DNA from: an uncultured Gammaproteobacteria bacterium
Lineage (GTDB): Bacteria > Patescibacteriota > Patescibacteriia > UBA1558 > UBA10009
Reading direction: 5' to 3'
Assembly (NCBI GenBank): GCA_964588165.1
Contig: CAZPMS010000004.1
Span: forward strand, 32,019-96,018
Length of the DNA stretch: 64,000 nucleotides
Shown here piece by piece: positions 12,415 through 45,393 of this stretch (position 1 is the first letter of the stretch; each line of letters starts with the position of its first letter). The notes beneath the pieces were generated by a model. The model was not told where the DNA came from. It worked only from the letters and a program-made list of their open reading frames with translations, and made no database searches. The translations under genes and the position numbers were made by a program.

Positions 12415-12450
12415 TTACTTATCTTTCCTGCCCTGTGAATAAATTTATAA

Positions 12451-24028: not shown

Positions 24029-24095
24029 AAATTAGTTATTGGTAACTGGTAATTGGTAACTAGCCTTTAAAAAACTAATTACAAATTTCTGATTA

Positions 24096-24788: not shown

Positions 24789-24901
24789 GATAACTACTAA
24801 TTACTAATATTTGCTAATATACAAATATTTTTTATGTGTAGAATTGATTTCTCATTCGTATATTAGTAACGATTCGTAATTGGTAGATCAGTATTTCGTA
24901 A
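24789..24901. promoter_or_regulatory. Intergenic inverted-repeat motif pair (ACTAATATACAAAT ... ATTCGTATATTAGTAACGATTCGTAAT), shared with the paralog-array intergenic regions
   Basis: The same words recur at 31637-31716, 34844-34956 and 40565-40803. Confidence 0.4.
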
Positions 24902-25363
24902 TTATTTTAAATCATCCCTAAAAGATAAATCCGGCGTTATTTGCTGGCCACTATAAACTCCACCAGTATCTATTACTAGAGAAAGGTCAGCCAGGCGCGA
25001 ACTGGTAATGGGTGCCTTGGGCGCAAAGCTTACAGGAACAGCCACTTTTTTATCTTCTTTTGCTTTTTTGGAACTAACTTTTATATCTCTTGCCCAAATC
25101 CTTAATTTAGGTTTTTTAAACGTTTGAATGACATTTAAAATAAAATAGTGGAAAGGCATGCCGTTAACTTTGGCAAAGGCAAAGGTGCCAAATAAAAATA
25201 GGGTGGGAATTGCCACAAAGATAAAAAAGCTGAAATCCGAAAGCTTATATTCTATAAATAAAAACAGTCCGGCAATAATTAATATAATAAACTGCCTAAC
25301 GGTAATAGGGCCGATAATTTTATCTTCTACATCAATAAATTGTGGCACAGTAAATTGTTGCAT
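24902..25363 (-). CDS. Small two-TM membrane protein, VirB3/PrgI-like by position
   Basis: Two hydrophobic helices (FIILIIAGLFLFI / FFIFVAIPTLFLFGTFAFA). Lies upstream of VirB4 as in Gram-positive T4SS. Confidence 0.4.
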   Translation of the reverse strand: MQQFTVPQFIDVEDKIIGPITVRQFIILIIAGLFLFIEYKLSDFSFFIFVAIPTLFLFGTFAFAKVNGMPFHYFILNVIQTFKKPKLRIWARDIKVSSKKAKEDKKVAVPVSFAPKAPITSSRLADLSLVIDTGGVYSGQQITPDLSFRDDLK

Positions 25364-25364
25364 T

Positions 25365-26600: not shown

Positions 26601-26690
26601 CGTTGCCGGAATAATGGGATTCTTCCTGCCTGCTGGCAGGCGGGCGGTTTTGCCTCAGAATGACGTAAAAGGCAAGACTTTGCTACAGTG
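26543..26690. repeat. Palindromic intergenic element, copy C, with embedded sub-palindrome CCTGCCTGCTGGCAGGCGGG
   Basis: Arms tgtcatcctgaacttcagtgaaggatcccatt ... aatgggattcttc[ctgcctgctggcaggcggg]cggttttgcctcagaatgacg. Confidence 0.55.
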
Positions 26691-27651
26691 TAGTTATCGG
26701 CCTGGACTGTAAAATATAAAATTTATTTTTAACAATGGCCCATTCTATATCTTGAGGGCACTTATAATGTTTTTCAATTTTCTTAATAATATCGGCCAGT
26801 TCAATAATCTGTTTACCGGTGAGTTTCTGTTTTGACTGCTGGGCTTTTATAACCGGTTTTAAAACGCTGCTGCCGCCTGGCTTCATTATTATCTGTTTTT
26901 CCTGGGTAGCAATATTAATATCTAAAATTGTGCCCTCTTTTTTATGGACTACATAACTATCCGGTGTAATTATGCCAGATACAATGGCTTCACCTAAACC
27001 ATAGCCCGCTTCTATAATTAATTGGTTTGTGTCTTGGGTAACCGGATGAACGCTAAAGGCCACGCCTGATACTTCGGAATCTACCATTTGCTGGATAACC
27101 ACGGCCACGCTGACTTTAGTTTTAACCAGTTTTTTTTCAAACCTGTAAAAAATTGCCCTAGGAGTGAACAATGATGCCCAGCACTTTTTAACATTTTCTA
27201 CTACATTCTTTTCATTGATGTAAAGAAAAGTATCCAGCTCACCTGCCCAAGAAGCAATTTTTGAATCTTCTGCAGTAGCTGATGACCTAACTGCCACCCA
27301 CTTGCACTTCAGCTTTTTAAACTCTTTAAGAATTGCCTCTTCTATTGGCTTCGGTACCTTTGAATCCAAAATCATATCGCCAATTGTTTTGGAAGCTTTA
27401 TCAATTGAGTTTACATCCTGGTAATTTACTTTATTAAGTTCTGCCTCTATATGAACATTTAGATCCTGGCCAGGCCCTGTTGGCGGCGGCGTATCATTTA
27501 AAAAGCTTTCAAAAGCGCCTGCTAAAACCACATAACCAGGCGGTACTGCAAGTTTGGCGTTAGTCATTTCGCCTAAGGAAGCACCCTTGCCACCAGCTAA
27601 ATTAACACTTTTTTTTGTAAGTTTACTAAAAGGTAAAACAAACTCTTTCAT
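26683..27651 (-). CDS. Standalone PPDK_N / PEP-synthase-type ATP-grasp (nucleotide-binding) domain protein. It has no His swivel domain and no PEP-utilizers_C domain.
   Basis: GGKGASLGEM, VAVRSSATAEDS, SWAGELDTFL, QQMVDSEVSGVAFSVHP, EAGYGLGEAIVSGIITPDSY and CPQDIEWAI. All are hallmark PpsA/RPH N-domain motifs. Confidence 0.85.
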   Translation of the reverse strand: MKEFVLPFSKLTKKSVNLAGGKGASLGEMTNAKLAVPPGYVVLAGAFESFLNDTPPPTGPGQDLNVHIEAELNKVNYQDVNSIDKASKTIGDMILDSKVPKPIEEAILKEFKKLKCKWVAVRSSATAEDSKIASWAGELDTFLYINEKNVVENVKKCWASLFTPRAIFYRFEKKLVKTKVSVAVVIQQMVDSEVSGVAFSVHPVTQDTNQLIIEAGYGLGEAIVSGIITPDSYVVHKKEGTILDINIATQEKQIIMKPGGSSVLKPVIKAQQSKQKLTGKQIIELADIIKKIEKHYKCPQDIEWAIVKNKFYILQSRPITTL

Positions 27652-27710
27652 TTGCTTTAAGTTAATGAATTATGCTTTATTATACCATAAATTAACTGTT
27701 TCAAACAACG

Positions 27711-27852
27711 AAAAAGCTTTACTACTACTTGTCATCTCGACCGAACCCGCCGATTCGGCGGGGAAGCGGAGAGATCCCGCTAATTTAGCACGTACTATTG
27801 ATTATGGGATCCTTCGGCAGGCTCAGGATGACAGTTGAATAAAGCTTTTTCC
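27711..27852. repeat. Palindromic intergenic element, copy B. The left arm is near-identical to copy A; the central loop is inverted relative to A.
   Basis: Outer inverted repeat AAAAAGCTTTA/TAAAGCTTTTT. Arms tgtcatctcgaccgaacccgccgattcggcggggaagcggagagatcccg ... gggatccttcggcaggctcaggatgacag. Confidence 0.6.
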
Positions 27853-27915
27853 CTAGCATTAGCCAAAAAATGATTGAGCCTTGGCCTGAAGTGGCGCGAA
27901 GCGTCTACTTCAGGC

Positions 27916-27944
27916 TTGACTTTTTTACCAAAGTATGCTATGAT
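27916..27944 (+). promoter_or_regulatory. Sigma70-like promoter (TTGACT, 17-bp spacer, TATGAT) for a GC-rich cassette, preceded by GC-rich hairpin GCCTGAAGT...ACTTCAGGC
   Basis: ttgact at 27916-27921 and tatgat at 27939-27944. GGAG RBS 7 nt before ATG 28019. Confidence 0.55.
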
Positions 27945-28018
27945 TATATATTAAATTGAACCTTGATTTTGTTAAAAACATAAGCAAAAAGCTGTAAAAA
28001 CCTGAACTGGAGAACAAG

Positions 28019-28735
28019 ATGAAGAGAGTCAACGTTATTGACTGCAGGCATTACCAGTATATGAATCCCAATGGTCTCGCTCCAGATACCGCCAGGACCA
28101 TCAAGAAACTCTACCAATTGCCCACTGAACAGGGCGCGTGGGAAGCAGTAACCATGGCAAATCTGCTGACTGAGGTGGGTACCATCCCCGCTATCATCGG
28201 ACATTCGCCGCAGCGTCGTGGCAAGGGCATGGCCGAACTGGTCAAACTCCAGGCCGGCTGGGCAACGAAAATGGTGGAATGCGACCGTGGTTTGAACGAC
28301 CTGGGCAGTGATCTAAACGCCCAGGAACTGATTCCGAAAATCGTCGCCTTCTCCCAGGAGAACAGCTGTTCGGTGGAAGAAGCTGTACTGCTCCTTCCAG
28401 AGGCACGCGAATACATCTTCGAGCGGAATCATGATCGTGTCAGGGACATTCAATACCTCTGCGGCCTGGTCAATGCCGGCGATACCGTATTCATGTCCAG
28501 CCACGGCGGTTCCATAGAGCCCACGGTTCTAAGGCTCCTGCTTCTGCAGCAGGAAACTCCGCTGATTGATCAAACAGCAAACATGCTCAATGTCGAAAAC
28601 CTGAGTAACTTCGGCGGCATGCTGGGGACCGGTGAAGCCTTCACCTACACCCTGATCTTGGATGACGATGGCAACATTGTTGCCGCCGAAAACATCCATT
28701 CCATCCGCCTGCCGGATTATCCACTCGCGAAGTAG
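28019..28735 (+). CDS. Foreign (~55% GC) gene. Possible histidine-phosphatase-superfamily (SixA/PGM-like) protein.
   Basis: Strong compositional contrast with flanks. Motifs CRHYQYMNPNG (RH...N) and SSHGGSIEPTVLRLL resemble the RHG and SHGG motifs of PF00300. Own promoter and terminator. The functional call is tentative. Confidence 0.55.
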   Translation: MKRVNVIDCRHYQYMNPNGLAPDTARTIKKLYQLPTEQGAWEAVTMANLLTEVGTIPAIIGHSPQRRGKGMAELVKLQAGWATKMVECDRGLNDLGSDLNAQELIPKIVAFSQENSCSVEEAVLLLPEAREYIFERNHDRVRDIQYLCGLVNAGDTVFMSSHGGSIEPTVLRLLLLQQETPLIDQTANMLNVENLSNFGGMLGTGEAFTYTLILDDDGNIVAAENIHSIRLPDYPLAK

Positions 28736-28773
28736 TACTCTCAATCGACCTTGGTCGAAAAAGAGTCAACAAT

Positions 28774-28813
28774 AAAACCGCATCTCAGCCATGAGAAGCG
28801 GTTTTTTCTTTTT
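28774..28813 (+). terminator. Rho-independent terminator (AAACCGCATCTCA-GCCA-TGAGAAGCGGTTT plus T-tract)
   Basis: Read directly after the stop of the GC-rich gene. Confidence 0.55.
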
Positions 28814-28820
28814 GCTAAAA

Positions 28821-30008
28821 TTATAAATATTTATTTAAATCTTTTTTAAATTGATTAAAGTTCTTAACAAAAATAGTTTTTATACCCATTTTTTTAGCAT
28901 CCACTAAATTATTTCTCTGATCATCTGCATAAACTATTTCCTGCGGTTTAACCTTTAATCTTTTCACGACTTCATTTAGAGTTGCCTTACTGGCTTTTGG
29001 CAGGCCAAGTTCATAAGTATTAATAATATTTTTAAAATGTTTTTTAAAGCCAAATTTTTTAACTGCAAAACTAAATTGACTTCTGGTATTTTTAGAAAGT
29101 AATAATGTTTTATAGCCTTTTTTATTTAGTTCTTTATTTAATTCTATTGTTTTTTTATTAAGTTTAAAAAAACTGTAATGTAAATCTCTTAGCTGTTGCC
29201 AAGTTATCGGTAAATTACAATCATCAACTGTTTTTTGCCAAGCTTCTGTTTGGGTAATTTTCCTTTCTGCTGCTTGGTTAAAATATTTAAAATACATTAT
29301 ATCCTGGTATTTTTTATAACTTCCGCCGTACTTTTTAACCAAAGCCTTAGAAGTATCCGGATAGCCGGAACTTAAAATCAAACCATAGCAATCAAATATA
29401 ACCAGCTTAATCTTTGGTTTTAAATAATTTGATAACTCTTTTTTAAACTGATTATAATTTTTATATTGAATTCCTTTTATATTATACTTAGCTGCAACTT
29501 TTAAATATTTTTCTATGTCATCAATAAATATTACTTCTTCACCTTTTACTTTATATTTATCCAAAACATACTTAAACATTTTTGGATTTGTTTTTATTAT
29601 TTTTATTTTTTGAGAGTTTATGACTTCATCAAAAATTTTATCATACTTAAATTTTTTATTTAAATAATCAATATAATTCTGAAAATTGTTACTTAATAAA
29701 ATTATTTTATAGTTCTTGCTTAATTTCTTGGCCAAATTTAATACTTGCTCATTGGCCTTATGAAGATTTAGATGCATTTCTTCAATCTTTCTACCGGTAA
29801 CTTTTAATCCTAATGATCTTATAGAATCGTTCCAAGCATTTAAAGAATTCGCATTTTTGCCGCAAGTCTCTAAAAAATGTCTATCATGACAAATTTTATA
29901 AACATGCTTAAAGGAAAGATTGTATTTCTTTGCTATTGCCTTGCAGGTTTTAGGATAACCGCCATCTAAAGCAACTCCAGCTGAATCAAAAATTATTAGT
30001 TTAATCAT
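28821..30008 (-). CDS. Tandem double HAD-like hydrolase/phosphatase protein (two repeats, motif-I variants FDSAGV and FDCYGL, motif IV DD)
   Basis: Internal duplication: MIKLIIFDSAGVALDGGYP and IKLVIFDCYGLILSSGYP. DD motifs at IFIDDIEKY and VYADDQRNN. Last gene of the paralog operon. Confidence 0.7.
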   Translation of the reverse strand: MIKLIIFDSAGVALDGGYPKTCKAIAKKYNLSFKHVYKICHDRHFLETCGKNANSLNAWNDSIRSLGLKVTGRKIEEMHLNLHKANEQVLNLAKKLSKNYKIILLSNNFQNYIDYLNKKFKYDKIFDEVINSQKIKIIKTNPKMFKYVLDKYKVKGEEVIFIDDIEKYLKVAAKYNIKGIQYKNYNQFKKELSNYLKPKIKLVIFDCYGLILSSGYPDTSKALVKKYGGSYKKYQDIMYFKYFNQAAERKITQTEAWQKTVDDCNLPITWQQLRDLHYSFFKLNKKTIELNKELNKKGYKTLLLSKNTRSQFSFAVKKFGFKKHFKNIINTYELGLPKASKATLNEVVKRLKVKPQEIVYADDQRNNLVDAKKMGIKTIFVKNFNQFKKDLNKYL

Positions 30009-30094
30009 ATAATATTGGTCTTATTCATCCCCTCCTTGCCAAGGAGGGGAAAACAACTATCTAAAATTTTGCCGATAACTGACTTGAGAGATGG

Positions 30095-31636
30095 TCAAAT
30101 CTTACGCACTTCTCCATTACTGGCATCAACCTGTACCCTGTCGCCATCTTTTAAAATTTCAGTGGCCACCTTAGTACCTATAATACAAGGAATTTTTAAT
30201 TCCCGGCTGACAATAGCCGCATGGCAAGTTATTCCGCCTAAATCAGTAACAATGGCTCCGGCCTTTTTCATGGCCGGCACTAAATCCGGGTTGGTCATAG
30301 TAGAAACTAAAATATCACCCTTATTCATTTTTTTAAGATCCCGAGTTGTGTTTATAATTCTGACTGTGCCTTCGGCTTTACCTAAACTAGCAGTTTGACC
30401 ATGAAAATAATTCATTTCAGTTAAATCTTCTTTTCGCAGTAAATAATGCTTCATGGAATCAAATATCTTATTAGTAAATACTTTACCCGGTAATTTACCC
30501 TCTACTACTACAAATAAACAACCCTTCATCCTTTTGTGTAAATCAGCCGGCCTATCCAGTTTTCCATCCAGCATTAATTTAACTTCTGGCAATAAACAGT
30601 TTCTTAATTCGTTAACAGACATGCTTAAACGGATAGATATTTCTTTTAGAAGCGGTTCTAGTTCATAGTATGACTGAACCAAACTCATTTTCCGATAATC
30701 TTTAGAATAAATAAACCCTTGAGTTACCTCTAATAACTTTTCATGTTTTTTATCAATTTTTAAATTATTAAGTAATTGATCGTGAATCTTTTTGGACTCT
30801 CTTTTTTCTTGCTGAATTTTTTTTATTTTATCCAAAGGTTTATTATTATCAGATACATCTTTTTTCAACTTCCGCCAAAAATAACTATCTGGAAAAGCCG
30901 GGCCTTCAAAATTATAGCCCATGTATTTATATTTTTTGATATGAGTTTCGACCAGCTTGATAATCTCTTTAGATAAATCTTTTTTCGGCCAAGGGCCGAC
31001 CAGCCTCTGGCTGGTACTCTTAATTTTTGAAGTAATTTTTAATAAGGCAATTTCTTCTTCCTGAACTTTAGAAAGCTTTTCTGGGATAGTTAAAAGAGCA
31101 AAACATTCTTTAGCAGTTTTATTATATTTAGTCTTTCTAACTTGCTTATTTAAATAATTAACTAGATAAGAAGTTAAATGAGGTTTGTATAAATCCATAT
31201 AAACCGGTGAAAGAGATGGATTATAAACTTTACTTTGCCAAACCAAATATTTTTTATAAAGTTGATGCAGTTCTTTATTGGATTTCTTTTTTAAATTTAC
31301 TTTAAAAATATTTTTTGAACTAAACTCAATTAAACCGTCAGAATTTTTTAAAATAATTTTGTTTAAACTAATGCCCCATTGTGGATTTTTTACAACTTTA
31401 TTCAAACCAAATTGACCAAGCTTGGTCCATTCATCATGGTCTACAAAAATTAAACCACTATCTTTCCTGTGCAAACAAATAACATTTTTTTGATACTTGC
31501 CTAAATAATCTCCGGTTCCTTTAATGGCCCCGCACCAGCCAGGATACATTATTGGATATAAAGAAATCGGCTGATTAGGCTCTAGGACCCCCCATTTATA
31601 TTTTTTTAAATTTTGGATTGAGTAAATGTCTTTCAT
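30095..31636 (-). CDS. RPH/YvkC-like phosphotransferase module: variable N-domain plus C-terminal PEP-utilizer phosphohistidine swivel domain (paralog 8 of 8)
   Basis: C-terminus GDILVSTMTNPDLVPAMKKAGAIVTDLGGITCHAAIVSRELKIPCIIGTKVATEILKDGDRVQVDA. No ATP-grasp and no PEP-utilizers_C TIM barrel. Confidence 0.75.
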   Translation of the reverse strand: MKDIYSIQNLKKYKWGVLEPNQPISLYPIMYPGWCGAIKGTGDYLGKYQKNVICLHRKDSGLIFVDHDEWTKLGQFGLNKVVKNPQWGISLNKIILKNSDGLIEFSSKNIFKVNLKKKSNKELHQLYKKYLVWQSKVYNPSLSPVYMDLYKPHLTSYLVNYLNKQVRKTKYNKTAKECFALLTIPEKLSKVQEEEIALLKITSKIKSTSQRLVGPWPKKDLSKEIIKLVETHIKKYKYMGYNFEGPAFPDSYFWRKLKKDVSDNNKPLDKIKKIQQEKRESKKIHDQLLNNLKIDKKHEKLLEVTQGFIYSKDYRKMSLVQSYYELEPLLKEISIRLSMSVNELRNCLLPEVKLMLDGKLDRPADLHKRMKGCLFVVVEGKLPGKVFTNKIFDSMKHYLLRKEDLTEMNYFHGQTASLGKAEGTVRIINTTRDLKKMNKGDILVSTMTNPDLVPAMKKAGAIVTDLGGITCHAAIVSRELKIPCIIGTKVATEILKDGDRVQVDASNGEVRKI

Positions 31637-31716
31637 ATTATACTAATTACTAATCTGTACTAATATACGAATTTGAAAAATTATTAGTATATTAGTAACA
31701 ATTCGTAAATTTGTAA
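31637..31716. promoter_or_regulatory. Inverted pair of the shared motif (tactaatatacgaat / attcgtaaat...tatattagtaac) directly upstream of a paralog sub-operon
   Basis: ctgtactaatatacgaatttg (reverse copy) and ttagtatattagtaacaattcgtaaat (forward copy) within 80 bp. Confidence 0.4.
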
Positions 31717-33234
31717 TTATATTTTTTTAACAATACCTTTTGTGGCGTCAATCTGAACTTTTTGGCCGTCTTTTAAAATTTTAGTGGCAAATCTAGTGCC
31801 AATCACACAAGGAATACTTAGCTCTCGGCTTACAATAGCAGCATGGCAGGTTACTCCGCCTTCATCAGTAACCACTGCGGCTGACTTTTTCATTAACGGT
31901 ACCATATTAGGATTAGTGGCATATGATACTAAAATATCACCAGCTTTAAATTTTGCGTAATCTTCTTTACTATTAATAACTTTAACAATGCCTTTAGCTT
32001 GGCCCTTACAAGCGCACTGCCCTTGAAGCTTTTTTAAACCCTTGGGTACCTTGTGGGCTTTAATATTTTTATTGAATTCTTTAGCTGCTTTACCTGTTAC
32101 TAATCTAATATTACCTTTGACGTTTATATAAAAACAGCGTTTTATTCTTTCGTTAACTTCATTTATATCAACTTCTTTCCTGCCGATTAATATTTCTACG
32201 ATTTCGTCTTTATGTAAATAATGCCCTTGTTTGACTGTTAAACCAAATCTTCTGCCAAATTCTTTAAGTAAAAACTCATAAGCATAATAACTATAATATT
32301 CAATGTCTTTCCTGTAGGCTTTTTGGAATCCAAACTGTCTAACCACCCAAAACATCCATTTGTGTTTTTCATCAACCTTAAGTTGTTTTAACAAATTGTT
32401 CTGTTTTTTCTCTAAAGTTTCTGCTTTCTTTTTTATTTTTACTAATTCTTGATGAGGATCATTTTTAACCCAATCTTTAATAGATGAAACAAAATATTCC
32501 AAATCTAAGAGTGGTCCTTCAAAACCAAAATTAATCCAATTGTATTTTTTTTCGTGAAGTTTGATCTTCTGTAAAAAATATTTATCTTTTTGATCAAGCT
32601 GTTTTATAATTTCTCGAGCTGACTTTTTGAAGATAGTTGAAAGTTTTTGCGACTTCTTAACTTCTATTGCCAACTTTAAAATATTTTCTCTCTCTTTAGC
32701 AGTTATAGTTTTTCTTTTATCCGAAGATAAAATCTGAAAAATTTCTACTAAAGTATATTTTTTGGGAATTGTCAAAGTATTTAAATATTCAGTTAATGAG
32801 TTGGTCCATAAAGGAGTACCGTATTCAGTATAACTAAAAGGAACGCTCCAAGTACTCATCTCATAAAAATAATAATAGAACTTTTCAAACTTCTTAGCTA
32901 ATTGCTTATCGGTTAAAATCGATAAGTCTTCTTTGACGATTTTTTTATTATACTCATGGAATTCATGGATAACATCGCTAACGTTCTTTAATACTTTCTT
33001 TGTTATTTTTTGATCATTGCAAAACATTTTGAAAAAATAAGCAGCTATAGAATTATAAGATTCCAAAACATAGCCTTGCCGGAGGCGCCCATTTGCAAGG
33101 CCAACTGACTGATGATTGGAACCCTTACCAAATTCCCTCACAAAACCGTCATAATTAGCATCAAAATGAAACCCAAACGGAAACAAATTTGCTCCATAAT
33201 TTTCGTTAATTAAAAACCAATTCACTTTTTTCAT
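31717..33234 (-). CDS. RPH/YvkC-like phosphotransferase module (paralog 7): variable N-domain plus His swivel domain
   Basis: C-terminus GDILVSYATNPNMVPLMKKSAAVVTDEGGVTCHAAIVSRELSIPCVIGTRFATKILKDGQKVQIDA. Confidence 0.75.
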   Translation of the reverse strand: MKKVNWFLINENYGANLFPFGFHFDANYDGFVREFGKGSNHQSVGLANGRLRQGYVLESYNSIAAYFFKMFCNDQKITKKVLKNVSDVIHEFHEYNKKIVKEDLSILTDKQLAKKFEKFYYYFYEMSTWSVPFSYTEYGTPLWTNSLTEYLNTLTIPKKYTLVEIFQILSSDKRKTITAKERENILKLAIEVKKSQKLSTIFKKSAREIIKQLDQKDKYFLQKIKLHEKKYNWINFGFEGPLLDLEYFVSSIKDWVKNDPHQELVKIKKKAETLEKKQNNLLKQLKVDEKHKWMFWVVRQFGFQKAYRKDIEYYSYYAYEFLLKEFGRRFGLTVKQGHYLHKDEIVEILIGRKEVDINEVNERIKRCFYINVKGNIRLVTGKAAKEFNKNIKAHKVPKGLKKLQGQCACKGQAKGIVKVINSKEDYAKFKAGDILVSYATNPNMVPLMKKSAAVVTDEGGVTCHAAIVSRELSIPCVIGTRFATKILKDGQKVQIDATKGIVKKI

Positions 33235-33235
33235 A

Positions 33236-34843
33236 TTAGACTTTTTTTACTATCCCCTTAGTGGCGTCCACTTCAACAAGGTCGCCATCTTTTAAAACTT
33301 GGGTGGCAACTTTAGTGCCAATTAAACAGGGTATGCTAAGTTCTCTGGCAACAATAGCTGCATGCGAAGTAACACCGCCTTGTTCAGTAACAATAGCCGC
33401 TGCCTTTTTCATGGCAGTCACAATATCCGGATCAGTGGCAATGGAAACCAAAATATCGCCCTTTTTCATCTTAGACATATCCTTTGGCCTAATAATAATT
33501 TTTACTTTGCCCTTAGCCTTGCCCACACAACCGGTTTGGCCCTGGATTTCCGTTATATCCGAAAGGTCTTTCTGTTTTATTTGCGAAGCCAGCTTTTTAG
33601 CCTGCTTTCCCACAAAGACTTTTTCAAAATCTTTCTCTACATAAAAAACGCAAAACTTGGTTCGCTCTTTAAGATTTTGGCGATTGATTTTATTACTAAG
33701 CAAAGCCTGCTTAATTTCACCAATAATCATGAACCTAATTTGCTTTAAAGTGATGTTTAACCTCTTGGCAATTTCTTTAAGAATCGGCTGCATCCTATAG
33801 ATGGCATAAATTTGGGCATACCTACGATAAATTTTAGTTACCATAAAATCGCCCCAATTATTGAATAAAGTAAGCCAAGCTCCTTTAATGCTAAGTTTTT
33901 TTATAAGTTTTTGACGGTCTGCTAAAATCTTCTTCTGCTCGGCCTGCATATTAGCAAGCATTTTTTCAGCATTTTGCTCCCGACCAACAAACTTAACCAG
34001 CTCCTTTAAATAATAATCAAAACTATTAACGCCTTCTTTGCCGGTCCACAAAAATTTTACGTAAAAATATTTTTCATAATACTTTTGAATAGCCTTTAAT
34101 ATTGAAAGGTGGACTTTACCCCTAATCCCGTTAACTTTACTTTCTAAAAGGTTCTCGTACTCGGGCGTATGGGTGGCTAAACCGTATTTAGCTGCGTTCT
34201 GCTCTTCAAACAGATTGTATAAATTTTTGAATAATTTTTTATGATATTTGTCTTCTTGAATCCTGGCAGCAATTTTTAAAAACTCTTCTTGTTCAATTTG
34301 AATTAAAGATTTTTTCCGAGGATGGGTTAATAAAACCAAATACTCATTTACTTTATCTTCAGTTACATCTATGCCTCGTAAAAATTGTTTAGCCCGCAGA
34401 GTTAAATTATTATGGAACATATCAACAGCTACCGGCAGCCAGCCCCATTGGTAATATTTTGTATGGATCTCATCATGTTTTTTATAATGTTCCCAAAGTT
34501 CTTTTTTAGAAAGTTTATGCAAATTATCTTCCGGCAGTTTTTCGGCAAACGATCTTAACCTATCTGAATATTCTACAATTCTTTTATTGGTTAGGGTAGC
34601 AAACTCCGGCTGGTTAACGTATTTTTTTACCAAATGGCCGCCAACTTCCTTGGAATCTTTCTCGCCATAATAAAACCAAAGGTGATACCCTTTAAATAAA
34701 GTAAGTATTTTTTTATAAGCCTTGCCGCTTGGACTTTTAAACTCGTTAACAAAGCAAGAAAGCCAAATCTGAGCAAAAAATAAATCCATATCAGGAATAT
34801 CTTCTCCTAAATACCAAGGGTCTTTATTATTTAGATGTTTCAT
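33236..34843 (-). CDS. RPH/YvkC-like phosphotransferase module (paralog 6)
   Basis: C-terminus GDILVSIATDPDIVTAMKKAAAIVTEQGGVTSHAAIVARELSIPCLIGTKVATQVLKDGDLVEVDA. Confidence 0.75.
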   Translation of the reverse strand: MKHLNNKDPWYLGEDIPDMDLFFAQIWLSCFVNEFKSPSGKAYKKILTLFKGYHLWFYYGEKDSKEVGGHLVKKYVNQPEFATLTNKRIVEYSDRLRSFAEKLPEDNLHKLSKKELWEHYKKHDEIHTKYYQWGWLPVAVDMFHNNLTLRAKQFLRGIDVTEDKVNEYLVLLTHPRKKSLIQIEQEEFLKIAARIQEDKYHKKLFKNLYNLFEEQNAAKYGLATHTPEYENLLESKVNGIRGKVHLSILKAIQKYYEKYFYVKFLWTGKEGVNSFDYYLKELVKFVGREQNAEKMLANMQAEQKKILADRQKLIKKLSIKGAWLTLFNNWGDFMVTKIYRRYAQIYAIYRMQPILKEIAKRLNITLKQIRFMIIGEIKQALLSNKINRQNLKERTKFCVFYVEKDFEKVFVGKQAKKLASQIKQKDLSDITEIQGQTGCVGKAKGKVKIIIRPKDMSKMKKGDILVSIATDPDIVTAMKKAAAIVTEQGGVTSHAAIVARELSIPCLIGTKVATQVLKDGDLVEVDATKGIVKKV

Positions 34844-34956
34844 ATAACTACTAATTTACAAATAAATACTAATATACAAATATGTGATTCAATTATTAAG
34901 TATATTGGATTTGTATATTAGTACAGATTGGTAATTCGTAATAATTTAATTCGTAG
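34844..34956. promoter_or_regulatory. Shared intergenic inverted-repeat motif (tactaatatacaaat ... tttgtatattagtacagattggtaattcgtaat)
   Basis: Sequence words shared with 24789-24901, 31637-31716 and 40565-40803. Confidence 0.4.
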
Positions 34957-36015
34957 TCATATTTTCTTTATTATACCATTGGCAGCATCAACTTCTACCG
35001 TATCACCGTCTTTTAAAATTTTAGTTGCAATTTTTGTGCCTATAATACAAGGTTTTTTTAATTCCCGAGCCACAATAGCTGCATGCGATAAAATACCGCC
35101 GGAATCAGTAACAAATGCTGAAGCTTTCTTCATTAAAGAAAGAAACTCCGGACGAGTCATGCCGGAAACCAACACATCGCCAGTATTAAATTTTTTAACT
35201 TTGTTTGGATCATGCACTACACGAACCACACCTTTAACCTTTCCAGAGTAAGCTGTCATACCGCGTAGTGTATTGGTAATATTTACCTCAGCCAAAACCT
35301 TTACTAAAGATTCGGCTTTATGTTCATTATATATGCTAAATCGGTTTTTATCACAATATATACCAAAAAGTTTATCACGTTTTTTTAAAAGATCTCTGGA
35401 AGGTAATTTCCCGGTTCGAAAATAATTTATCATTTCATCTTTAATACAACAAAGCACCAACTGGGTAGATATTTTTTCATTTTTTCCAATTTTTTTAGCC
35501 ATTTTTTCCATAAACTGCTCGGTCAAAGTCAATACATCCTCAGCGTACAGCCTTGCTTCCTCAAACTTGCGAAACGATTTCTTAAGTTGATCAGAGGTAA
35601 GCCCATCTACTATATACTTAACATTAATATGTGGTTGATAATATTTAACAAGTTTATTCCAAAAAATATTATACAGTTTTTCGGTAAGCGTGACGTTTTT
35701 ATGCTTTACCATAAACTCACGCAATTCATCAGCTTGACGTTTTAGACTTAAACAAATGATTTTTACTTGCCGATGGTTGCCTTTAATTTCTTCTGCCAAA
35801 TGCTTACATATTGCCTCACGGTCTTTTTGCCTAGCCCAACCCTCGCTCTTGCCATTTCGTATAATAATGATGCTCTCGGGCAAAAATGGCCTACCATTAA
35901 ATTTAATTAACCGTGAATATTGCTCAGCAAAATGGCTGCAAGAAAGTATGCTCCAACTACCGGCCCAAATTTGAAGCCAATCAGGTCTTTGTAATAATTG
36001 AGGAGAGATATACAT
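34957..36015 (-). CDS. RPH/YvkC-like phosphotransferase module (paralog 5), shortened. Its N-domain is ~180 aa shorter, consistent with an internal deletion.
   Basis: 352 aa versus 480-535 aa for the sibling paralogs. Retains the QIW N-terminal motif and an intact swivel domain GDVLVSGMTRPEFLSLMKKASAFVTDSGGILSHAAIVARELKKPCIIGTKIATKILKDGDTVEVDA. Confidence 0.7.
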   Translation of the reverse strand: MYISPQLLQRPDWLQIWAGSWSILSCSHFAEQYSRLIKFNGRPFLPESIIIIRNGKSEGWARQKDREAICKHLAEEIKGNHRQVKIICLSLKRQADELREFMVKHKNVTLTEKLYNIFWNKLVKYYQPHINVKYIVDGLTSDQLKKSFRKFEEARLYAEDVLTLTEQFMEKMAKKIGKNEKISTQLVLCCIKDEMINYFRTGKLPSRDLLKKRDKLFGIYCDKNRFSIYNEHKAESLVKVLAEVNITNTLRGMTAYSGKVKGVVRVVHDPNKVKKFNTGDVLVSGMTRPEFLSLMKKASAFVTDSGGILSHAAIVARELKKPCIIGTKIATKILKDGDTVEVDAANGIIKKI

Positions 36016-36020
36016 AAAGA

Positions 36021-37568
36021 TTATATTTTTTTAATTATTCCCTGAGTGGAGTTAACTTCTACCGTATCACCGTCTTTTAATACTTTATCACAATCTGCTA
36101 CCCCAACCACGCAGGGCACCTGCATTTCTCTGGCCACAATAGCCGTGTGGCAGGTTAAACCGCCGGCACCGCCAATTAAAGCTTTGGCCTTTTTCATGGC
36201 TGGAACTAAATTAGGATTAGTGTTATGGGCCACCATAATATCACCCTTATTCATTTTATCCATATCTTTTGGCACATTGACGATTTTGACAATGCCCTTT
36301 ACTTTTCCGGGGTAAGCGCAGGTACCTTTTAGTTCACTGGTATTATTGGTTATTTTTTTAATTAATATTTTTTTATAAAATTCATTTGCTGCCGAACCTG
36401 AATAGGTTTTATTATAAACTTTGCCGTTTTTACGATACCAATAATCGGCCACAAACCTTTGCCTTTTGTTTAATTCATCCTGATTAATCCGACCGGTTTT
36501 TAGAGCTTGGGTAATTTCCCAAGGTTTTAGCGCCCATACTTGATTTAGGGATAAATGCATTCTTTTAGCAACTTCTTTAAAAACTATTTCGTAATAATAC
36601 ATACTGTTATAAAGAGCATTCTTGCGGTAATCTTTAATAAATACCATTTCCTGGGCCATTTTAATTAAATCTTTTTCATATTGTGTAAAATTCAATTCTT
36701 TTAGCATTTTATTTTGCCGGCTGATCAGTTGTTGCCGCCTTTTAGCAATTTCATTTAAAAGTTTGGTGGGGCTCTGGCCTTCCCTAAAAAATGCCTGCCA
36801 TCTGCCAATGTATTCTACAAGTTCATAAGCTGGCCCGCGGTACTGGAAGGTAAACGAAGTATAAGCATGGTAATGGTTGATAATCTTTTTTGAAATCACC
36901 TGATCTAAATTCTTAATATTATCTGTTAGGTCATCTAAATCAGAATGGATGAAAGTTTCTTTAAGTTTTCTTTTGTTATTTATTAACTTAGCTATCTGTA
37001 AAAAGCTCTCTTCCTCTTTTTCTAAAAAACTTTTTTTATGAGGAGAAGTTAAAACCGGAAAAACTTCAGAAATATTTTTTTTAATCATTGATTTCTTTAA
37101 TTTAGGCTCAATAATTTTAATTATGCCTTTAGTAACCAGTTCCCTTCCTTGGTCGGCATGCCAGGAAAGCGAAGCTCCAATCCCGTGGCTAAATTGGTGA
37201 TGTTTATATATTTTATTAAGAAGTTTTACAATCTGGCCATTGTTTAACTTATTTAAAGCAAGTTTTTTTATAGCTTTAGATTCTTTTAAAAATCGAGTGG
37301 AGACATCCTCTACTTCTTTTAAAATCTTTAGGGCCCAAGCTGGATCTTTAAACATTTTGGCTGACAAAAATTCAGCCTGCTTATCAAACTCTTTAGCAAT
37401 ATAAATCATGTTGCTAAAATCACCCTTATAGTAGGTAATATATTTGTTAAATTCTTTACCCAGACCTTTTTCGGGCCAGTCTTCAAAAAAACTTTTCATG
37501 GGAAAGCCCATCATAAATAAAGTATTTTCTGGAATGTCTTCAACTATTTTCCAAATTTCTTTACTCAT
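36021..37568 (-). CDS. RPH/YvkC-like phosphotransferase module (paralog 4)
   Basis: C-terminus GDIMVAHNTNPNLVPAMKKAKALIGGAGGLTCHTAIVAREMQVPCVVGVADCDKVLKDGDTVEVNS. Confidence 0.75.
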   Translation of the reverse strand: MSKEIWKIVEDIPENTLFMMGFPMKSFFEDWPEKGLGKEFNKYITYYKGDFSNMIYIAKEFDKQAEFLSAKMFKDPAWALKILKEVEDVSTRFLKESKAIKKLALNKLNNGQIVKLLNKIYKHHQFSHGIGASLSWHADQGRELVTKGIIKIIEPKLKKSMIKKNISEVFPVLTSPHKKSFLEKEEESFLQIAKLINNKRKLKETFIHSDLDDLTDNIKNLDQVISKKIINHYHAYTSFTFQYRGPAYELVEYIGRWQAFFREGQSPTKLLNEIAKRRQQLISRQNKMLKELNFTQYEKDLIKMAQEMVFIKDYRKNALYNSMYYYEIVFKEVAKRMHLSLNQVWALKPWEITQALKTGRINQDELNKRQRFVADYWYRKNGKVYNKTYSGSAANEFYKKILIKKITNNTSELKGTCAYPGKVKGIVKIVNVPKDMDKMNKGDIMVAHNTNPNLVPAMKKAKALIGGAGGLTCHTAIVAREMQVPCVVGVADCDKVLKDGDTVEVNSTQGIIKKI

Positions 37569-37616
37569 ATTTTTTTATTATATTTTTTTTGTCCTGCTGT
37601 TCGGGACTTCGCGAGG

Positions 37617-39065
37617 TTAAGTAATTTTTTTTATGGTACCTTGCTCAGCATCAACTTCAACTTTATCATTATCTTTTAAAACTAAATGGACATTAGGAAC
37701 ACCAACAATACAGGGTACTCTTAATTCTCTAGAAACAATAGCTGCGTGGGAAGTAATACCGCCCAGCTCGGTAATGATAGCGCTGGCCATTCTCATAATC
37801 GGCACATAATCTATACAGGTTGATTCAGAAACTAAAATATCACCTTTCTTAAACTTTTTTAAATCACTGATACTTTTAATTATTTTTACTTTTCCATTAA
37901 CTTTGCCAATCGAAGCACAGATTCCTCTTAAACGATTGCCTTTAGATTTTGCCGGTCGTTCGTAATTATTTTTAAATAAATTTTGTACTTCTTTACCTGA
38001 ATATACTTCCTTATTCTTTATATCACTAAAAAATAATGATGCTTTTTGACGATCTTTTATCTCCGAAGTAAATACAACATCATTTACAATAACGTCTGAA
38101 ACTTCTTCTTGGGTTAAATATCTCATATTATATAAAGAAAGCCCTGTTCTCTTAGTTATTTCTTTAACTACATTCTTTAATAAATAAGTACCTAAACTAA
38201 CCATGGTCTCTGATTCATTACGAATAAAGGCAATCTCCTGCATTAACTGGGGCCAATCGCTTTTTTGAGGAAATTTATTTAAAACTTTTTTAATGCCTTC
38301 CTTTTGCTTAGTTGGATATTCTAAAATTTCTTTTTTAAGATTTTCTAAATTCTTATTTTTTGCTAATTTTTTAAATTCGGAGATTGCATATTTTTTATCC
38401 CAGCTTGGACCAAACAAAAATACCGGTAGCCAACCAAAATTATAAAGATATTTATTTATCTCTTTTTCTACGTCCGAAGTTATTTTTTTTGCTTTCTTAT
38501 ACTTTATGGCCAGATCAATTAAAGCTATTTCATCTAATTGAGTAGAGGTTAAGCTGACAGGGGTTGTTAAAATAGTTCTATATTCATTAAACTTAGCAGT
38601 CTCTTTTATTTTGCTAAGTTGATTTTTTATGTATTTTTCTAATTCCTTAAGATAAAACCGTTCGCCAACCATGCAATGCTGATCAAAAGGCGTTGCTTGA
38701 TGTATTAAATCAATAATTTCTCTGAATTCTTTATTTAACAACTTATCATTTAAATTATTAAATGATTTATTCTGCTTTAAAAGAAGCTTTTGTTTAACCT
38801 TTTTAAAAACTGGATAAAATTTGTTTAGATTATTCAATAATTTCTGTTTAGAAAAAGAATTAATGTTTTTTTCAACCTGTCGTAAATATTTTTTACTAAT
38901 ATATAAATACTCTTTATCTTGAATCACAAAAACAGCTACTTCTTTATCTTCACTAAAGTGCCTTTTCAAATTCTTGTTTACCGCCGGATCATACCACAAT
39001 AAATTATCAAGTAATAAAATATTATTCCATTCGCCAAAATATTTGTAATCTAAAATTTTTTTCAT
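37617..39065 (-). CDS. RPH/YvkC-like phosphotransferase module (paralog 3)
   Basis: C-terminus GDILVSESTCIDYVPIMRMASAIITELGGITSHAAIVSRELRVPCIVGVPNVHLVLKDNDKVEVDA. Confidence 0.75.
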   Translation of the reverse strand: MKKILDYKYFGEWNNILLLDNLLWYDPAVNKNLKRHFSEDKEVAVFVIQDKEYLYISKKYLRQVEKNINSFSKQKLLNNLNKFYPVFKKVKQKLLLKQNKSFNNLNDKLLNKEFREIIDLIHQATPFDQHCMVGERFYLKELEKYIKNQLSKIKETAKFNEYRTILTTPVSLTSTQLDEIALIDLAIKYKKAKKITSDVEKEINKYLYNFGWLPVFLFGPSWDKKYAISEFKKLAKNKNLENLKKEILEYPTKQKEGIKKVLNKFPQKSDWPQLMQEIAFIRNESETMVSLGTYLLKNVVKEITKRTGLSLYNMRYLTQEEVSDVIVNDVVFTSEIKDRQKASLFFSDIKNKEVYSGKEVQNLFKNNYERPAKSKGNRLRGICASIGKVNGKVKIIKSISDLKKFKKGDILVSESTCIDYVPIMRMASAIITELGGITSHAAIVSRELRVPCIVGVPNVHLVLKDNDKVEVDAEQGTIKKIT

Positions 39066-40564
39066 ATTTTTTTTACTAGACCTTTAGTAGCGTCAACTTC
39101 AATTTGATCACCGTCTTTTAAGATTTTTGTACCTATTTTAGTACCCACTACACAAGGAATATTAAATTCCCGGCTAATAATGGCGGCATGGCAGGTTAGA
39201 CCGCCTTCATCGGCCACTATGGCTACTGCCTTCCTTATGGCCGGAACAATTGATGGGGTGGTAGCCGTGGAAACTAAAATGTCGCCCTCCTGCATTTTAG
39301 GCATATCATCCGGCATATCTACCCGCCTAACTATTCCTTTTGCTTTGCCGGGATATGCTGATTGGCCCTCTATTTCTTTTAAATCCTTTATCTCAATTTT
39401 TTCTTCTTCTAAATTTTCTTGTTGCCATTTGGCTGCTTCTTTGCCCTGATAGAGCTTTGCGCCGTCCCCTTCCGGCACAACAATGTGGAATTTCTGGCGT
39501 TCATTTATTAAATCTATATTTACTTCTTTACCATTTAAAGCAGCATCTATTTCTTCTACAGTGGCTGACCTAACTTGGCCAACAGACCAACCTAAACGTT
39601 TGCCAATTTCTTTTTGTAAAAATTCTATATGATAATATGATTTTGATTGGTAATCTTTCCTTCTAGGCTTTAAATAAACAACTTTAGAGGCAATTTCCAC
39701 ATAACTTTTTTCTTTCTCCGATAAATTCATTTTTGAAAAATATCCATCTCTCTCTTTAAGCAAATTATTTCTTTCTTTATTAAGTTGTGATAATTTTTCT
39801 TCAGCTTTAATGCCCTTTTGATAATAAAATTTTAAGGTTTCTATAAAATCAAAGTCAGTAGCTGCTGGTCCGCTATATACATAAAAAACCCAAGCATATT
39901 TTTTTGTATGTTGTTCTACTTTTTTGTAAACCCCGGGTTCTTTCTGCTTCAATAGTAATAAAACCTGGCTCGTTTCTTTTTTTAAGATTGTTTTATTTTT
40001 TAATTTTTGATAAATCTTTAAGATTGATTTTTCCTGCTCAATGGCAAAAGAATCTTCTATAGGCTGAGTGAATATTGAAAAAGCTTTGCTTACTTCATCT
40101 TTATTTAATTTAGATTGTAAAATTGAAGTTAATTTATCTTCAACATAATGATATTCTTGGAAGTCTAAATAAGGGATCATTACGCCATAAGCATATTCCA
40201 GACCATTTAATTCACCATGTTTTTGATAAGCTTTAACTATTTTTTTATTGGAATACTTAGATAAATCATCAGTTACAAATTTTTCTGTAAAACTATTCAT
40301 CTCTTTACCATGCTTAACCGAATCATCTAAAATTTTATTCAAAACATTAATATCTTCATCAACCATTTTTGATAATTTCTCATACCCATCTTTCCAAGTA
40401 TCAGCAATAACCAAATAATCTATTTTTTTAGTATTACTTCTAATACCTACTAATACTTGTGGGATGCCAAATATTTTTGGCTGACTTGTTAAACCAAGTG
40501 TCCAAATATAGTTTCGCCAGAATGGTGAATTATAATCACTGGCAATTTTTGACCATTTTCTCAT
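39062..40564 (-). CDS. RPH/YvkC-like phosphotransferase module (paralog 2). Overlaps paralog 3 by 4 bp.
   Basis: C-terminus GDILVSTATTPSIVPAIRKAVAIVADEGGLTCHAAIISREFNIPCVVGTKIGTKILKDGDQIEVDA. Confidence 0.75.
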   Translation of the reverse strand: MRKWSKIASDYNSPFWRNYIWTLGLTSQPKIFGIPQVLVGIRSNTKKIDYLVIADTWKDGYEKLSKMVDEDINVLNKILDDSVKHGKEMNSFTEKFVTDDLSKYSNKKIVKAYQKHGELNGLEYAYGVMIPYLDFQEYHYVEDKLTSILQSKLNKDEVSKAFSIFTQPIEDSFAIEQEKSILKIYQKLKNKTILKKETSQVLLLLKQKEPGVYKKVEQHTKKYAWVFYVYSGPAATDFDFIETLKFYYQKGIKAEEKLSQLNKERNNLLKERDGYFSKMNLSEKEKSYVEIASKVVYLKPRRKDYQSKSYYHIEFLQKEIGKRLGWSVGQVRSATVEEIDAALNGKEVNIDLINERQKFHIVVPEGDGAKLYQGKEAAKWQQENLEEEKIEIKDLKEIEGQSAYPGKAKGIVRRVDMPDDMPKMQEGDILVSTATTPSIVPAIRKAVAIVADEGGLTCHAAIISREFNIPCVVGTKIGTKILKDGDQIEVDATKGLVKKI

Positions 40565-40803
40565 ACACTACTAATTTACAAATTTTTTACTAATATACTA
40601 ATCTACGAATGTACAAATAATTACCAATATACGAATTTGATGCTTTTAAATATAAATGATAATTTTCGTATATTCGTTATAAACTTCATACAGAATACCA
40701 ATAATCTTATAACTTAATTTAGGATAAATTAAATCGCTTTTCATAATTTTTTAATTAATTATTATATTTTATTTGTATATTCGTACAAATTAGTAATTCG
40801 TAG
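40565..40803. promoter_or_regulatory. Long intergenic region with reverse and forward copies of the shared motif (ttactaatatactaatctacgaatgtac ... ttatttgtatattcgtacaaattagtaattcgtag), separated by ~130 bp of AT-rich spacer
   Basis: Sequence words shared with the other three motif regions. Confidence 0.4.
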
Positions 40804-44613: not shown

Positions 44614-44687
44614 CTAACTCAATTAAGGATGCGAGAATACTAGTTTACTAACCTCCTAGCATCCTAAAAATAATTTATACACACTAT

Positions 44688-44918
44688 ATGACTAAATCAA
44701 AAAATTTACTTAATAAAGAAAGATATTGCTATTTTTGCGTTAATTCTGTTAAAGAAATTGACTATAAGAGCTGGCAAGTACTCCAACGGTTTGTTTCTTC
44801 TTATGGTAAAATTGTTCCCCGAAGAAGAAGCGGAGTTTGCTCTAGCCACCAAAGGCAATTGGCTAAAGCAATAAAGCGAGCCAGGATTATGGCTTTCTTG
44901 CCTTTTAGTACCAGATAA
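44688..44918 (+). CDS. rpsR: 30S ribosomal protein S18
   Basis: CYFC...IDYKSWQVLQRFVSSYGKIVPRRRSGVCSSHQRQLAKAIKRARIMAFLPF. Confidence 0.9.
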   Translation: MTKSKNLLNKERYCYFCVNSVKEIDYKSWQVLQRFVSSYGKIVPRRRSGVCSSHQRQLAKAIKRARIMAFLPFSTR

Positions 44919-44949
44919 AATCTTAAAAACTTAATATTGAAAAGCGACT

Positions 44950-45372: not shown

Positions 45373-45393
45373 TTATTTAGAAATTAAAAATCT

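Follow-up and report, generated by a model that had tools for sequence, protein, structure and literature searches.

Here, we describe four intergenic spacers in a 64,000-nucleotide stretch of DNA (the window, with position 1 its first letter) that are probably miniature GxxExxY cassettes, three of them gene-less and one with a gene remnant, from a family that is widespread in Patescibacteria. The inverted motif shared by the spacers had been proposed as the operator of a dimeric regulator or, alternatively, as the termini of a tiny MITE. With moderate confidence, we take it to be no switch for this gene cluster and to form the inverted-repeat ends of a small dispersed element. More tentatively, we propose that GxxExxY proteins are the nucleases of cassettes, mobile or homing, that form a class not recognised before and have heptad-array ends read by protein; cassettes and gene-less miniatures would colonise spacers that separate the most highly conserved co-transcribed genes of Patescibacteria and would pass from one lineage to another when DNA taken up by a cell recombines, with different protein clades using different words.

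Heptad arrays in the window

The motif is present in all four intergenic regions of the original prediction (24789-24901, 31637-31716, 34844-34956 and 40565-40803). TACTAATATACRAAT has 17 matches in the window at up to 2 mismatches, compared with 0.80 expected and a maximum of 3 across 100 shuffles; 14 of the 17 fall inside the four regions. The unit is not the single 12-mer first described but a heptad, TAC-N-AAT (N mostly T or G), spaced at 7-8 bp with four heptads per arm and laid out as a heptad pair, a 3-nt spacer, a second pair, a variable loop and then the mirror image. Nor is there a self-palindromic core: GTACTAATATAC and GTATATTAGTAC are reverse complements of each other, the two arms of one inverted repeat, and neither is palindromic by itself. 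A scan of the intergenic regions of the window found 7, 8, 9 and 14 strict TACNAAT/ATTNGTA heptads in the four regions and 0-1 in each other region. The exception is a partial, inside-out set on the reverse strand at 24029-24095 (ATTTGTA ... TACCAAT, TACCAgT, TACCAAT), between the TraC-like and VirB4-like genes, which is probably a decayed copy; the window holds four to five copies. The short elements measure 80-113 bp and have terminal inverted repeats of 26-33 nt per arm, 81-85% complementary, with loops of 10, 27 and 27 nt; ~134 nt separate the arms of the fourth region.

All four elements read on the reverse strand. The gene-less miniature R1 (24789-24901) lies between a PrgI-like gene (24902-25363) and a TraC-like gene (24096-24788), and consists of an upstream arm at 24854-24885 (reverse-strand heptads at 24854, 24862, 24872 and 24879), a loop at 24827-24853 and a downstream arm at 24795-24826 (forward-strand heptads at 24795, 24802 and 24820). 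Its arms are 33 nt long and 82% complementary, and it was found identical in 6 metagenome contigs. The miniatures R2 and R3, also gene-less, each separate two PEP-utilizers paralogs. R2 (31637-31716; upstream arm 31683-31715, loop 31673-31682, downstream arm 31641-31672) has four heptads per arm, with arms of 26 nt that are 81% complementary and 10 nt apart, and R3 (34844-34956; upstream arm 34909-34955, loop 34882-34908, downstream arm 34849-34881) has five and four heptads on its two arms, which are 26 nt long, 85% complementary and 27 nt apart.

R4 (40565-40803), identified by heptads, inverted repeat and tblastn, is an element shortened by internal deletion in which part of a gene survives. 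It has an upstream arm at 40771-40802, a downstream arm at 40569-40636 that is doubled to 8 heptads and a degenerate inner arm at about 40660-40680, an architecture the same as that of a deleted copy in locus L068. The remnant of a GxxExxY ORF inside it (40646-40744, reverse strand) reads MKSDLIYPKLSYKIIGILYEVYNE and then goes out of register; it matches the GxxExxY protein of locus L105 over 24 aa at 79% identity (tblastn, E 6.6e-7). No intact GxxExxY gene was found within the 64-kb window, and loop homology among its four copies was not significant. The word AAATTAGTAGT, reported to end every region in place of a Shine-Dalgarno sequence, is exact in three of the four and corresponds simply to the heptad at the outer edge of the downstream arm. 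It is no Shine-Dalgarno stand-in, because almost no gene of the window has a Shine-Dalgarno sequence anyway.

Gene-bearing cassettes and their distribution

The same heptad arms form both ends of cassettes that carry the gene for a ~125-aa GxxExxY protein. In full, the order is upstream stop codon, four-heptad TAC-K-AAT arm, GxxExxY gene, inverted arm and ATG of the next gene. Gene-bearing copies were found at loci L068, L115, L105, L021 and L142, and cassettes also at L185, L182 and L189. Gene-bearing and gene-less copies have their arms in common, deletion intermediates exist, and on one contig a full copy is accompanied by a second copy that has the same left arm but has undergone internal deletion. 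GxxExxY genes picked by protein similarity alone had a TAC-heptad arm directly upstream in 7 of 7 cases and an inverted arm downstream in 6 of 7. These genes sit at S7|EF-G, L5..S8, upstream of rpoB, at LemA|HtpX and on either side of PrgI, and one occupies the PrgI|TraC-like junction, as R1 does. A divergent GxxExxY (23-34% identity) is flanked by another word, CGCTGA/TCAGCG.

The cassette ORF belongs to TIGR04256/PF13366, whose function is listed as unknown, as it is for GxxExxY/PDDEXK_3 in a survey of the PD-(D/E)XK superfamily (PMC3424549). Its structure model (pLDDT 93) has a generic PD-(D/E)XK fold, 42 homologues all retain the nuclease site E31/D70/E80/K82 and, judged from sequence, the protein keeps the complete PD-(D/E)XK catalytic set. 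GxxExxY is not known as a transposase or homing-endonuclease family. In our literature search, neither the motif nor repeats at the flanks of GxxExxY genes had been described.

The architecture recurs across diverse Patescibacteria, at no fewer than 165 loci (45 from GTDB and at least 120 from metagenomes); these were gathered with DNA patterns, and the copy-number and context statistics are therefore biased. Genes flanking the pattern-collected elements are mostly those for ribosomal proteins, EF-Tu/G, GroES/EL, SecY and tRNA synthetases, with example junctions at groES|groEL, S12|S7 and ribosomal-protein gene pairs, and in the MAG JAUYLN01 almost all gene junctions of the ribosomal-protein operons carry an element (at least 20 copies in its loci). 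Copies are dispersed and lie in either orientation; an apparent orientation bias relative to gene direction (20:5) was gone in an independent sample (26 against 37). Elements lie between co-directional genes in 59 of 70 cases in a first sample, the other 11 being mostly spurious or incomplete ORF calls, and a second sample comprises 63 co-directional, 13 divergent and 5 convergent spacers. In divergent spacers the element adjoins one ATG. Elements lie at a median of 19 nt from the start codon and 12 nt from the stop codon, which overall does not support anchoring to the start rather than the stop. No recurrent transposase or integrase was found among 1272 neighbouring ORFs, and no element matched viral contigs.

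A comparison of related CPR genomes, which had been suggested as a check on the MITE reading, revealed presence/absence polymorphism. Five syntenic relatives (L052-L056) are empty: their PrgI gene either overlaps the TraC-like gene or is separated from it by 3-10 nt. A sixth has a different, unrelated word-array palindrome at the PrgI|TraC-like junction. Between two genomes, an element is 100% identical, loop included, within flanks that are only 65-78% identical, which on this sequence evidence is a recent exchange. Copies in one genome usually have unrelated loops (as in the window and in CAYIHW01), which is not what simple copy-and-paste would predict. Some loop similarity among the JAUYLN01 copies is only suggestive. 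Arms are conserved at orthologous junctions although 4-fold sites in the neighbouring genes have reached saturation, pointing to selection on each copy or continual conversion and not to the neutral decay of selfish DNA.

Alternative readings of the arms

The MITE reading is essentially right, in form only. Terminal inverted repeats, multiple copies, insertion polymorphism and a longer, gene-bearing parent with the same termini were all found, but the parent gene is no known transposase, its ORF being PF13366/TIGR04256 with only a generic PD-(D/E)XK fold. The ends have no consistent direct repeat that would mark a target-site duplication and no defined cut site (~15 copies inspected, none forming a closely related empty/filled pair). 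The other early proposal, an operator through which a dimeric regulator co-controls the PEP-utilizers (phosphotransferase) paralog sub-operons and the T4SS-like operon in this organism, now has very little to recommend it. Although the window copies are confined to that 16-kb block, each just 5' of an ATG, the sites are mostly intercistronic, between co-transcribed genes and not at promoters; the same-order relatives just described have the block without the element, and R4 contains a nuclease-gene remnant. The flanked genes make up no coherent target set, spanning ribosomal proteins, GroESL, PEP-utilizers paralogs and T4SS-like genes, and in other lineages the element stands between unrelated housekeeping genes (ribosomal-protein, chaperonin, EF-G and tRNA-synthetase genes). 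It is also quite unlikely that the arrays are operators through which some conserved protein that binds DNA (a ribbon-helix-helix protein of a type that recognises 7-8-bp words in tandem, for instance, or GxxExxY as repressor) tunes operon transcription, with the GxxExxY cassettes as one target only. Such operators would fit the layout of the words, which follow one another every 7-8 bp in both direct and inverted arrangement, the retention of arms at orthologous junctions despite saturated synonymous sites, and the same T/G preference at N on both arms, as a duplex DNA word predicts. The sites, however, lie within operons and not at promoters and define no coherent regulon, close relatives have the same genes without the element, and the arms exactly bracket one gene family of which deletion derivatives exist. 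Other kinds of site were rejected. In a consensus scan, promoter-like sites were no more frequent than in shuffles and had no fixed place in the elements, and a -35/-10 reading of one arm fits one subfamily only. Terminators were set aside because the hairpins lack a following T-run, and integron attC sites because the RYYYAAC/GTTRRRY core sites are absent from the sequences read and the 'cassettes' would include universally ordered ribosomal-protein genes. As far as we know, DNA-uptake sequences, CIRCE, NrdR and LexA boxes, dif/Xer and loxP-like sites and TIGR arrays are unfit in sequence, copy distribution or context.

A function at the RNA level is rather improbable as the main explanation, and could coexist with the cassette explanation as the reason that the insert is tolerated. 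In the polycistronic transcript, base pairing between the arms would give a long, imperfect hairpin with heptads read by an RNA-binding protein; the hairpin might loop out the cassette for RNase III-type processing (cf. 23S rRNA intervening sequences and phage T7 intercistronic sites), or its base might hold stop and start codons together and couple translation. Such a role is consistent with the position of the elements in transcribed spacers and 5' leaders, near both stop and start codons, with a near-perfect palindrome that is the same in either orientation, and with predicted sense-strand hairpins that are stabler than shuffles (z -2.5 to -3.5). By eye, a sigma-70-like promoter precedes the element in L043 (ahead of rpsL) and L115, and the element is therefore transcribed there. 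The substitution pattern argues against RNA pairing: the central N does not covary (19 complementary vs 21.1 expected, and 20 vs 23.3), mirrored N positions are preferentially mismatched, the sense strand has no excess of G-U over A-C (51 vs 64), and sequence is conserved where a bare stem could vary freely. Neither compensatory change nor a match to a curated RNA family was found for the elements, with three tRNAs the only Rfam matches in the window. The heptads appear, from their sequences, to be read as words and not as a stem.

Proposed mechanism and closest known systems

Returning to the cassette explanation, we infer that the GxxExxY nuclease binds the heptads and that the cassettes are mobile. 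The heptads would be read as double-stranded DNA words by the nuclease or a partner protein, and this reading would cause the cassette to spread or be replaced through cut-and-repair ('intronless homing'), repair relying on homology in the arms or in the conserved genes on either side. Gene-less palindromes may be deletion products or trans-mobilised derivatives. Pairing of the arms in the transcript would bring the upstream stop and downstream start close together, which would explain tolerance of the insert inside essential operons. If correct, this proposal explains a recurrent, undescribed non-coding class in candidate-phyla-radiation genomes, whose members might otherwise pass for operators, promoters or RNA motifs, and gives the large GxxExxY/PDDEXK_3 family a testable first genomic role. 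It would newly tie this nuclease type to inverted-repeat elements and place selfish inserts even in the ribosomal-protein operons of minimal genomes, and the suggested regulatory link between phosphotransferase paralogs and secretion/pilus genes would fall away at this locus.

Several known systems share features with the cassettes. The REP/REPIN-RAYT systems of Proteobacteria likewise have many short extragenic palindromic repeats, often in operons, a cognate gene bracketed by inverted repeats, and gene-less doublets that far outnumber the gene. They leave no target-site duplication, and none was seen in the copies inspected here. The gene bracketed here, however, encodes a PD-(D/E)XK GxxExxY protein, often in multiple copies, and not an HUH/Y1 transposase; the arms are AT-rich four-heptad arrays and not individually palindromic GC-rich hairpins, and the same words are common to class-level lineages. 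IS-derived MITEs (Correia, RUP, Nezha) are similarly small, noncoding, polymorphic and nested, with terminal inverted repeats and deletion intermediates that hold pieces of the parent ORF, but the present elements have no visible target-site duplication, no recognised parent transposase and, in most genomes, no internal sequence conserved between copies. The free-standing seg/mob homing endonucleases of T-even phages also place a small nuclease gene between conserved co-transcribed genes, at junctions occupied or empty in relatives, where flanking homology could serve spread; unlike the cassettes, they belong to the GIY-YIG and HNH families and have neither inverted-repeat termini nor gene-less miniatures. 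Ribbon-helix-helix operator arrays (omega of pSM19035, ParG, MetJ), with 7-8 bp words back to back in direct and inverted order and pairs read cooperatively, could serve as an analogy for how the arms are read; they occupy promoters or centromeres that belong to plasmids or to a regulon, whereas no ribbon-helix-helix gene is associated with the elements described here. The intervening sequences of 23S rRNA differ in their location in rRNA, their ORF family and ends that are not heptad arrays, but they too carry a small ORF of unknown function between complementary ends, inserted in an essential, highly expressed transcript and tolerated because the ends pair.

Heptad arrays in the window, its relatives and other Patescibacteria

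The four spacers R1 (24789-24901), R2 (31637-31716), R3 (34844-34956) and R4 (40565-40803) each carry arrays of seven-nucleotide words (heptads), TAC-N-AAT and its reverse ATT-N-GTA, and these form the ends of cassettes of one family, which is represented in the window by gene-less or remnant-bearing miniatures. Every gene between 16.7 and 43.5 kb of the window lies on the minus strand, and on that strand R1-R4 share one plan: upstream stop codon, arm, loop, mirror arm and ATG. The upstream arm is made of four TAC-N-AAT words (a pair, a 3-nt spacer and a pair; inner pair TACTAATATACNAAT) and the downstream arm of at least four ATT-N-GTA words in mirror order, ending 4-6 nt before the ATG of the next gene. 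Loops between the arms are 10, 27 and 27 nt long, and in the fourth region, R4, the arms lie ~134 nt apart. Across the whole window the 15-mer occurs 17 times with up to 2 mismatches (0.8 expected) and strict heptads are essentially confined to the four spacers, so the repeated inverted motif of the original prediction is confirmed and its description corrected: the true unit is the heptad array, and the two 12-mers taken as self-palindromic are its two arms. The word AAATTAGTAGT, which had been proposed to stand in for a Shine-Dalgarno sequence, is the final heptad of an arm, and because Shine-Dalgarno sequences are nearly absent from the genes of the window, it is not such a substitute.

Identical R1 sequences are found in several groundwater metagenomes containing the window's organism. 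Five relatives keep the PrgI / TraC-like / VirB4 order (TraC-like protein 68-76% identical), and in the four that have 20-kb loci the upstream order (PEP-utilizers array, PPDK_N, an unknown gene) is kept too. No heptad cluster is present anywhere in these five (four 20-kb loci and one 3-kb contig), and their PrgI and TraC-like genes overlap or are separated by 3-10 nt, versus 113 nt in the window. Presence/absence polymorphism, the proposed sign of a MITE, is thus found, and since the element (two inverted arms and loop) is missing from syntenic relatives, the suggestion of an operator co-regulating phosphotransferase and T4SS genes is unsupported. In a sixth relative (L057, 77% identical) the PrgI|TraC-like junction carries another word-array palindrome (AATCAAn x6 ... 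TTGATT), with six AATCAAn octads, then inverted TTGATT words, then a GC hairpin at about 1954-2093 of that locus.

The element is not specific to the window locus. A first scan, using the inner inverted pair as query and one genome per species, yielded 45 loci from Doudna-, Yanofsky-, Morani- and Staskawicz-bacteria and other Patescibacteria MAGs, all with the pair-spacer-pair / loop / mirror plan, and often with arms extended by an extra degenerate heptad (CTTTACTAA... / ...TTAGTAAAG). In MAG JAUYLN01 the element occupies the spacer of nearly every gene pair in the S10, spc, str and alpha ribosomal-protein operons; further sites include groES|groEL, S12|S7, and positions ahead of gyrB, glyS and rnpA. 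A second scan, of metagenomes with a single arm as query, yielded at least 120 loci, with ribosomal proteins, EF-Tu, SecY, tRNA synthetases and GroESL as recurrent neighbours among the matches listed. Flanking genes are co-directional for 59 of 70 elements in the first sample (the remaining 11 calls being mostly spurious or incomplete ORFs), and among the matches listed in the second the context is co-directional in 63 cases, divergent in 13 and convergent in 5; the flanking stop and start lie a short distance away on either side. The cassette family is dispersed, polymorphic between relatives, and located in spacers of conserved operons.

GxxExxY genes between the arms

Among ORFs near elements, clustering brought out a single recurrent family outside the housekeeping genes, that of small GxxExxY proteins with matches to TIGR04256 and PF13366, whose genes sit exactly between the left and right arms. 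The full cassette at L068, a collected Patescibacteria locus, reads ...TACTAATTACTAATcaaaTACGAATaTACTAATaa-ATG, 128 codons, TAA-aaATTAGTAtATTAGTAccaatATTAGTAATTAGTAaag..ATG of the next gene. A second copy on the same contig, an internal deletion, retains an identical left arm together with the first 17 codons, the last dozen bases and a right arm; R4 is an object of this kind too, its 'loop' starting with 24 codons 79% identical to a GxxExxY protein. As an independent test, GxxExxY homologues were gathered by protein similarity alone and their flanks inspected afterwards, yielding seven genes in six contexts. All seven are immediately preceded by a TAC-type heptad arm and are co-directional with their neighbours, and six are followed by an inverted arm. 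They lie between S7 and EF-G, in the spc operon at S14|S8 (with a gene-less element just upstream at L5|S14), upstream of rpoB, between LemA and HtpX, and on both sides of PrgI, including the PrgI|TraC-like junction that is the R1 site in the window. Arm words vary (TACGAAT, TACTAAT, TACGGAT, TACGAAA), and a divergent GxxExxY protein that shares only 23-34% identity with the others has a different word on its two sides, CGCTGA x3 / TCAGCG x4. One lineage carries, in its spc operon (L182, 1603-1842), a 79-aa ORF without any family match beside the GxxExxY gene between the arms, so a cassette can hold a second small gene.

Residues E31, D70, E80 and K82, the PD-(D/E)XK catalytic set with its first E within the GxxExxY motif, are invariant across 42 homologues. 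Confidence of the AlphaFold model is high (pLDDT 93), and the model matches only the generic nuclease core (TM about 0.5) of Cas4, lambda exonuclease, MGME1, splicing endonucleases, Hjc and a homing-endonuclease catalytic domain. Sequence search found no related solved structure, and no phage or defence family was matched beyond weak Cas4 similarity. A survey of the PD-(D/E)XK superfamily enters PDDEXK_3 as 'Unknown' (PMC3424549), and no published account of repeats flanking GxxExxY genes was found in the literature.

Proposed reading of the heptads and spread of the cassette

T or G occupies the centre of about 85-90% of heptads in either arm, each arm read in its own orientation. Central bases of mirrored heptads do not covary (19 complementary versus 21.1 expected; G opposite C in 0 of 10), nor do they in an independent sample (20 versus 23.3), where mirrored positions are mostly non-complementary. 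A G on one arm faces A in 41 of 59 cases and C in 10, and a T faces C in 40 of 59; the sense strand has no excess of G-U (51) over A-C (64) mismatches. Together these results favour reading of each heptad as a word, in the simplest case on double-stranded DNA, and speak against selection for perfect pairing. The sequence data give no sign of selection on arm pairing itself. Element hairpins are predicted to fold in RNA, and arm pairing in the transcript may account for tolerance within essential operons. An apparent bias in element orientation in the first sample was gone in the second. At four JAUYLN01 loci (L006, L009, L043, L044), the inner segment of inner arms and loop is found either way round with respect to the outer pairs (for example ...TACTAATATAC..GTATATTAGTG... 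versus ...CACTAATATAC..ATTCGTA...), as are related loop sequences, in a flip-flop pattern.

We propose that the GxxExxY nuclease, or a partner, reads heptad pairs, and that this reading would promote spread or replacement of the cassette. Distant lineages repeatedly have the same junctions of highly conserved genes occupied, and two genomes with flanking DNA 65-78% identical share one element at 100% identity, its 13-nt loop included; both observations fit a spread between lineages by recombination. Two others do not fit a simple selfish copy-and-paste element: copies within one genome usually have unrelated loops, and arms are conserved at orthologous junctions with saturated flanking 4-fold sites (0.32-0.56 identity). 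Either each copy is therefore under selection or the arms undergo continual homogenisation. Closest in form are REPIN-RAYT systems, together with MITEs and their parent elements, which agrees with the MITE termini raised as an alternative in the original prediction; however, REPIN-RAYT systems have an HUH transposase that these cassettes lack, no parent transposase of the MITE kind is recognised in them, and no target duplication was seen at the ends of about 15 copies inspected. In placement, the closest counterparts of the proposed nuclease-driven cassette are the free-standing homing endonucleases of T-even phages.

Neighbouring genes and other repeat families

The window copies are flanked by eight tandem paralogs with a C-terminal PEP-utilizers swivel domain (26683-42279), each with a variable N-terminal part of ~400 aa, by a T4SS-like set (PrgI, TraC-like protein, VirB4/TraG-like ATPase, DsbA-like protein and T4SS pilin), and by one stand-alone PPDK_N protein and a HAD hydrolase. 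The arrangement of paralogs next to a lone PPDK_N (ATP-grasp) protein and a HAD or His_Phos protein recurs in four relatives (L052-L055), where, as in the window, it immediately precedes the PrgI / TraC-like / VirB4 / T4SS-pilin operon. This block resembles a split phosphotransferase system equipped with many substrate modules, and its linkage to pilus or secretion genes is conserved. A ~1.2-kb break in the minus-strand operon (27652-28820), with one MITE-like repeat copy, no Pfam-recognisable gene and a 238-aa plus-strand ORF without a match, may be a decayed insertion.

The GC-rich palindrome CCTGCCTGCCGGCAGGCAGG occurs in several window spacers (12415-12583, 26601-26682, 45300-45393) and, nested within a heptad element, in an unrelated MAG (L011, about 1975-2000), and appears to be another repeat family common to different lineages. 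A ~100-nt repeat with inverted ends gtcatcccgac... / ...tcgaaatgacag around gatcccgtaatatctagtacgtgctaat is present in three spacers (15850-15960, 28560-28700, 60459-60559) and looks like a separate MITE-like family. At 9294-9807, a stop-interrupted ORF resembling the four-helix-bundle '23S rRNA intervening sequence protein' is followed by the words GGATTAT / AGATTAT / GGATTAT, which suggests that other small ORF families in the window have their own word arrays. A GIY-YIG-like ORF fragment (YYVYIITNKYNTVLYTGVTNDLSRR...) lies in the ssb|efp spacer (44614-45393), and at L193 a GIY-YIG gene adjoins the GxxExxY cassette upstream of rpoB. Between two T4SS-like operon genes, a short spacer (18462-18521) holds another word-array inverted repeat, TATCGTATATCGTT ... 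ACACGATAC..ACACGATA. Long loops of many heptad elements contain palindromes of other words, including GAAGTTn, AATTCTAA and TTCTTTCG tandem repeats (L087, L110/L148, L165, L080, L132), and this nesting of elements within elements suggests that insertions preferentially land in the loop.
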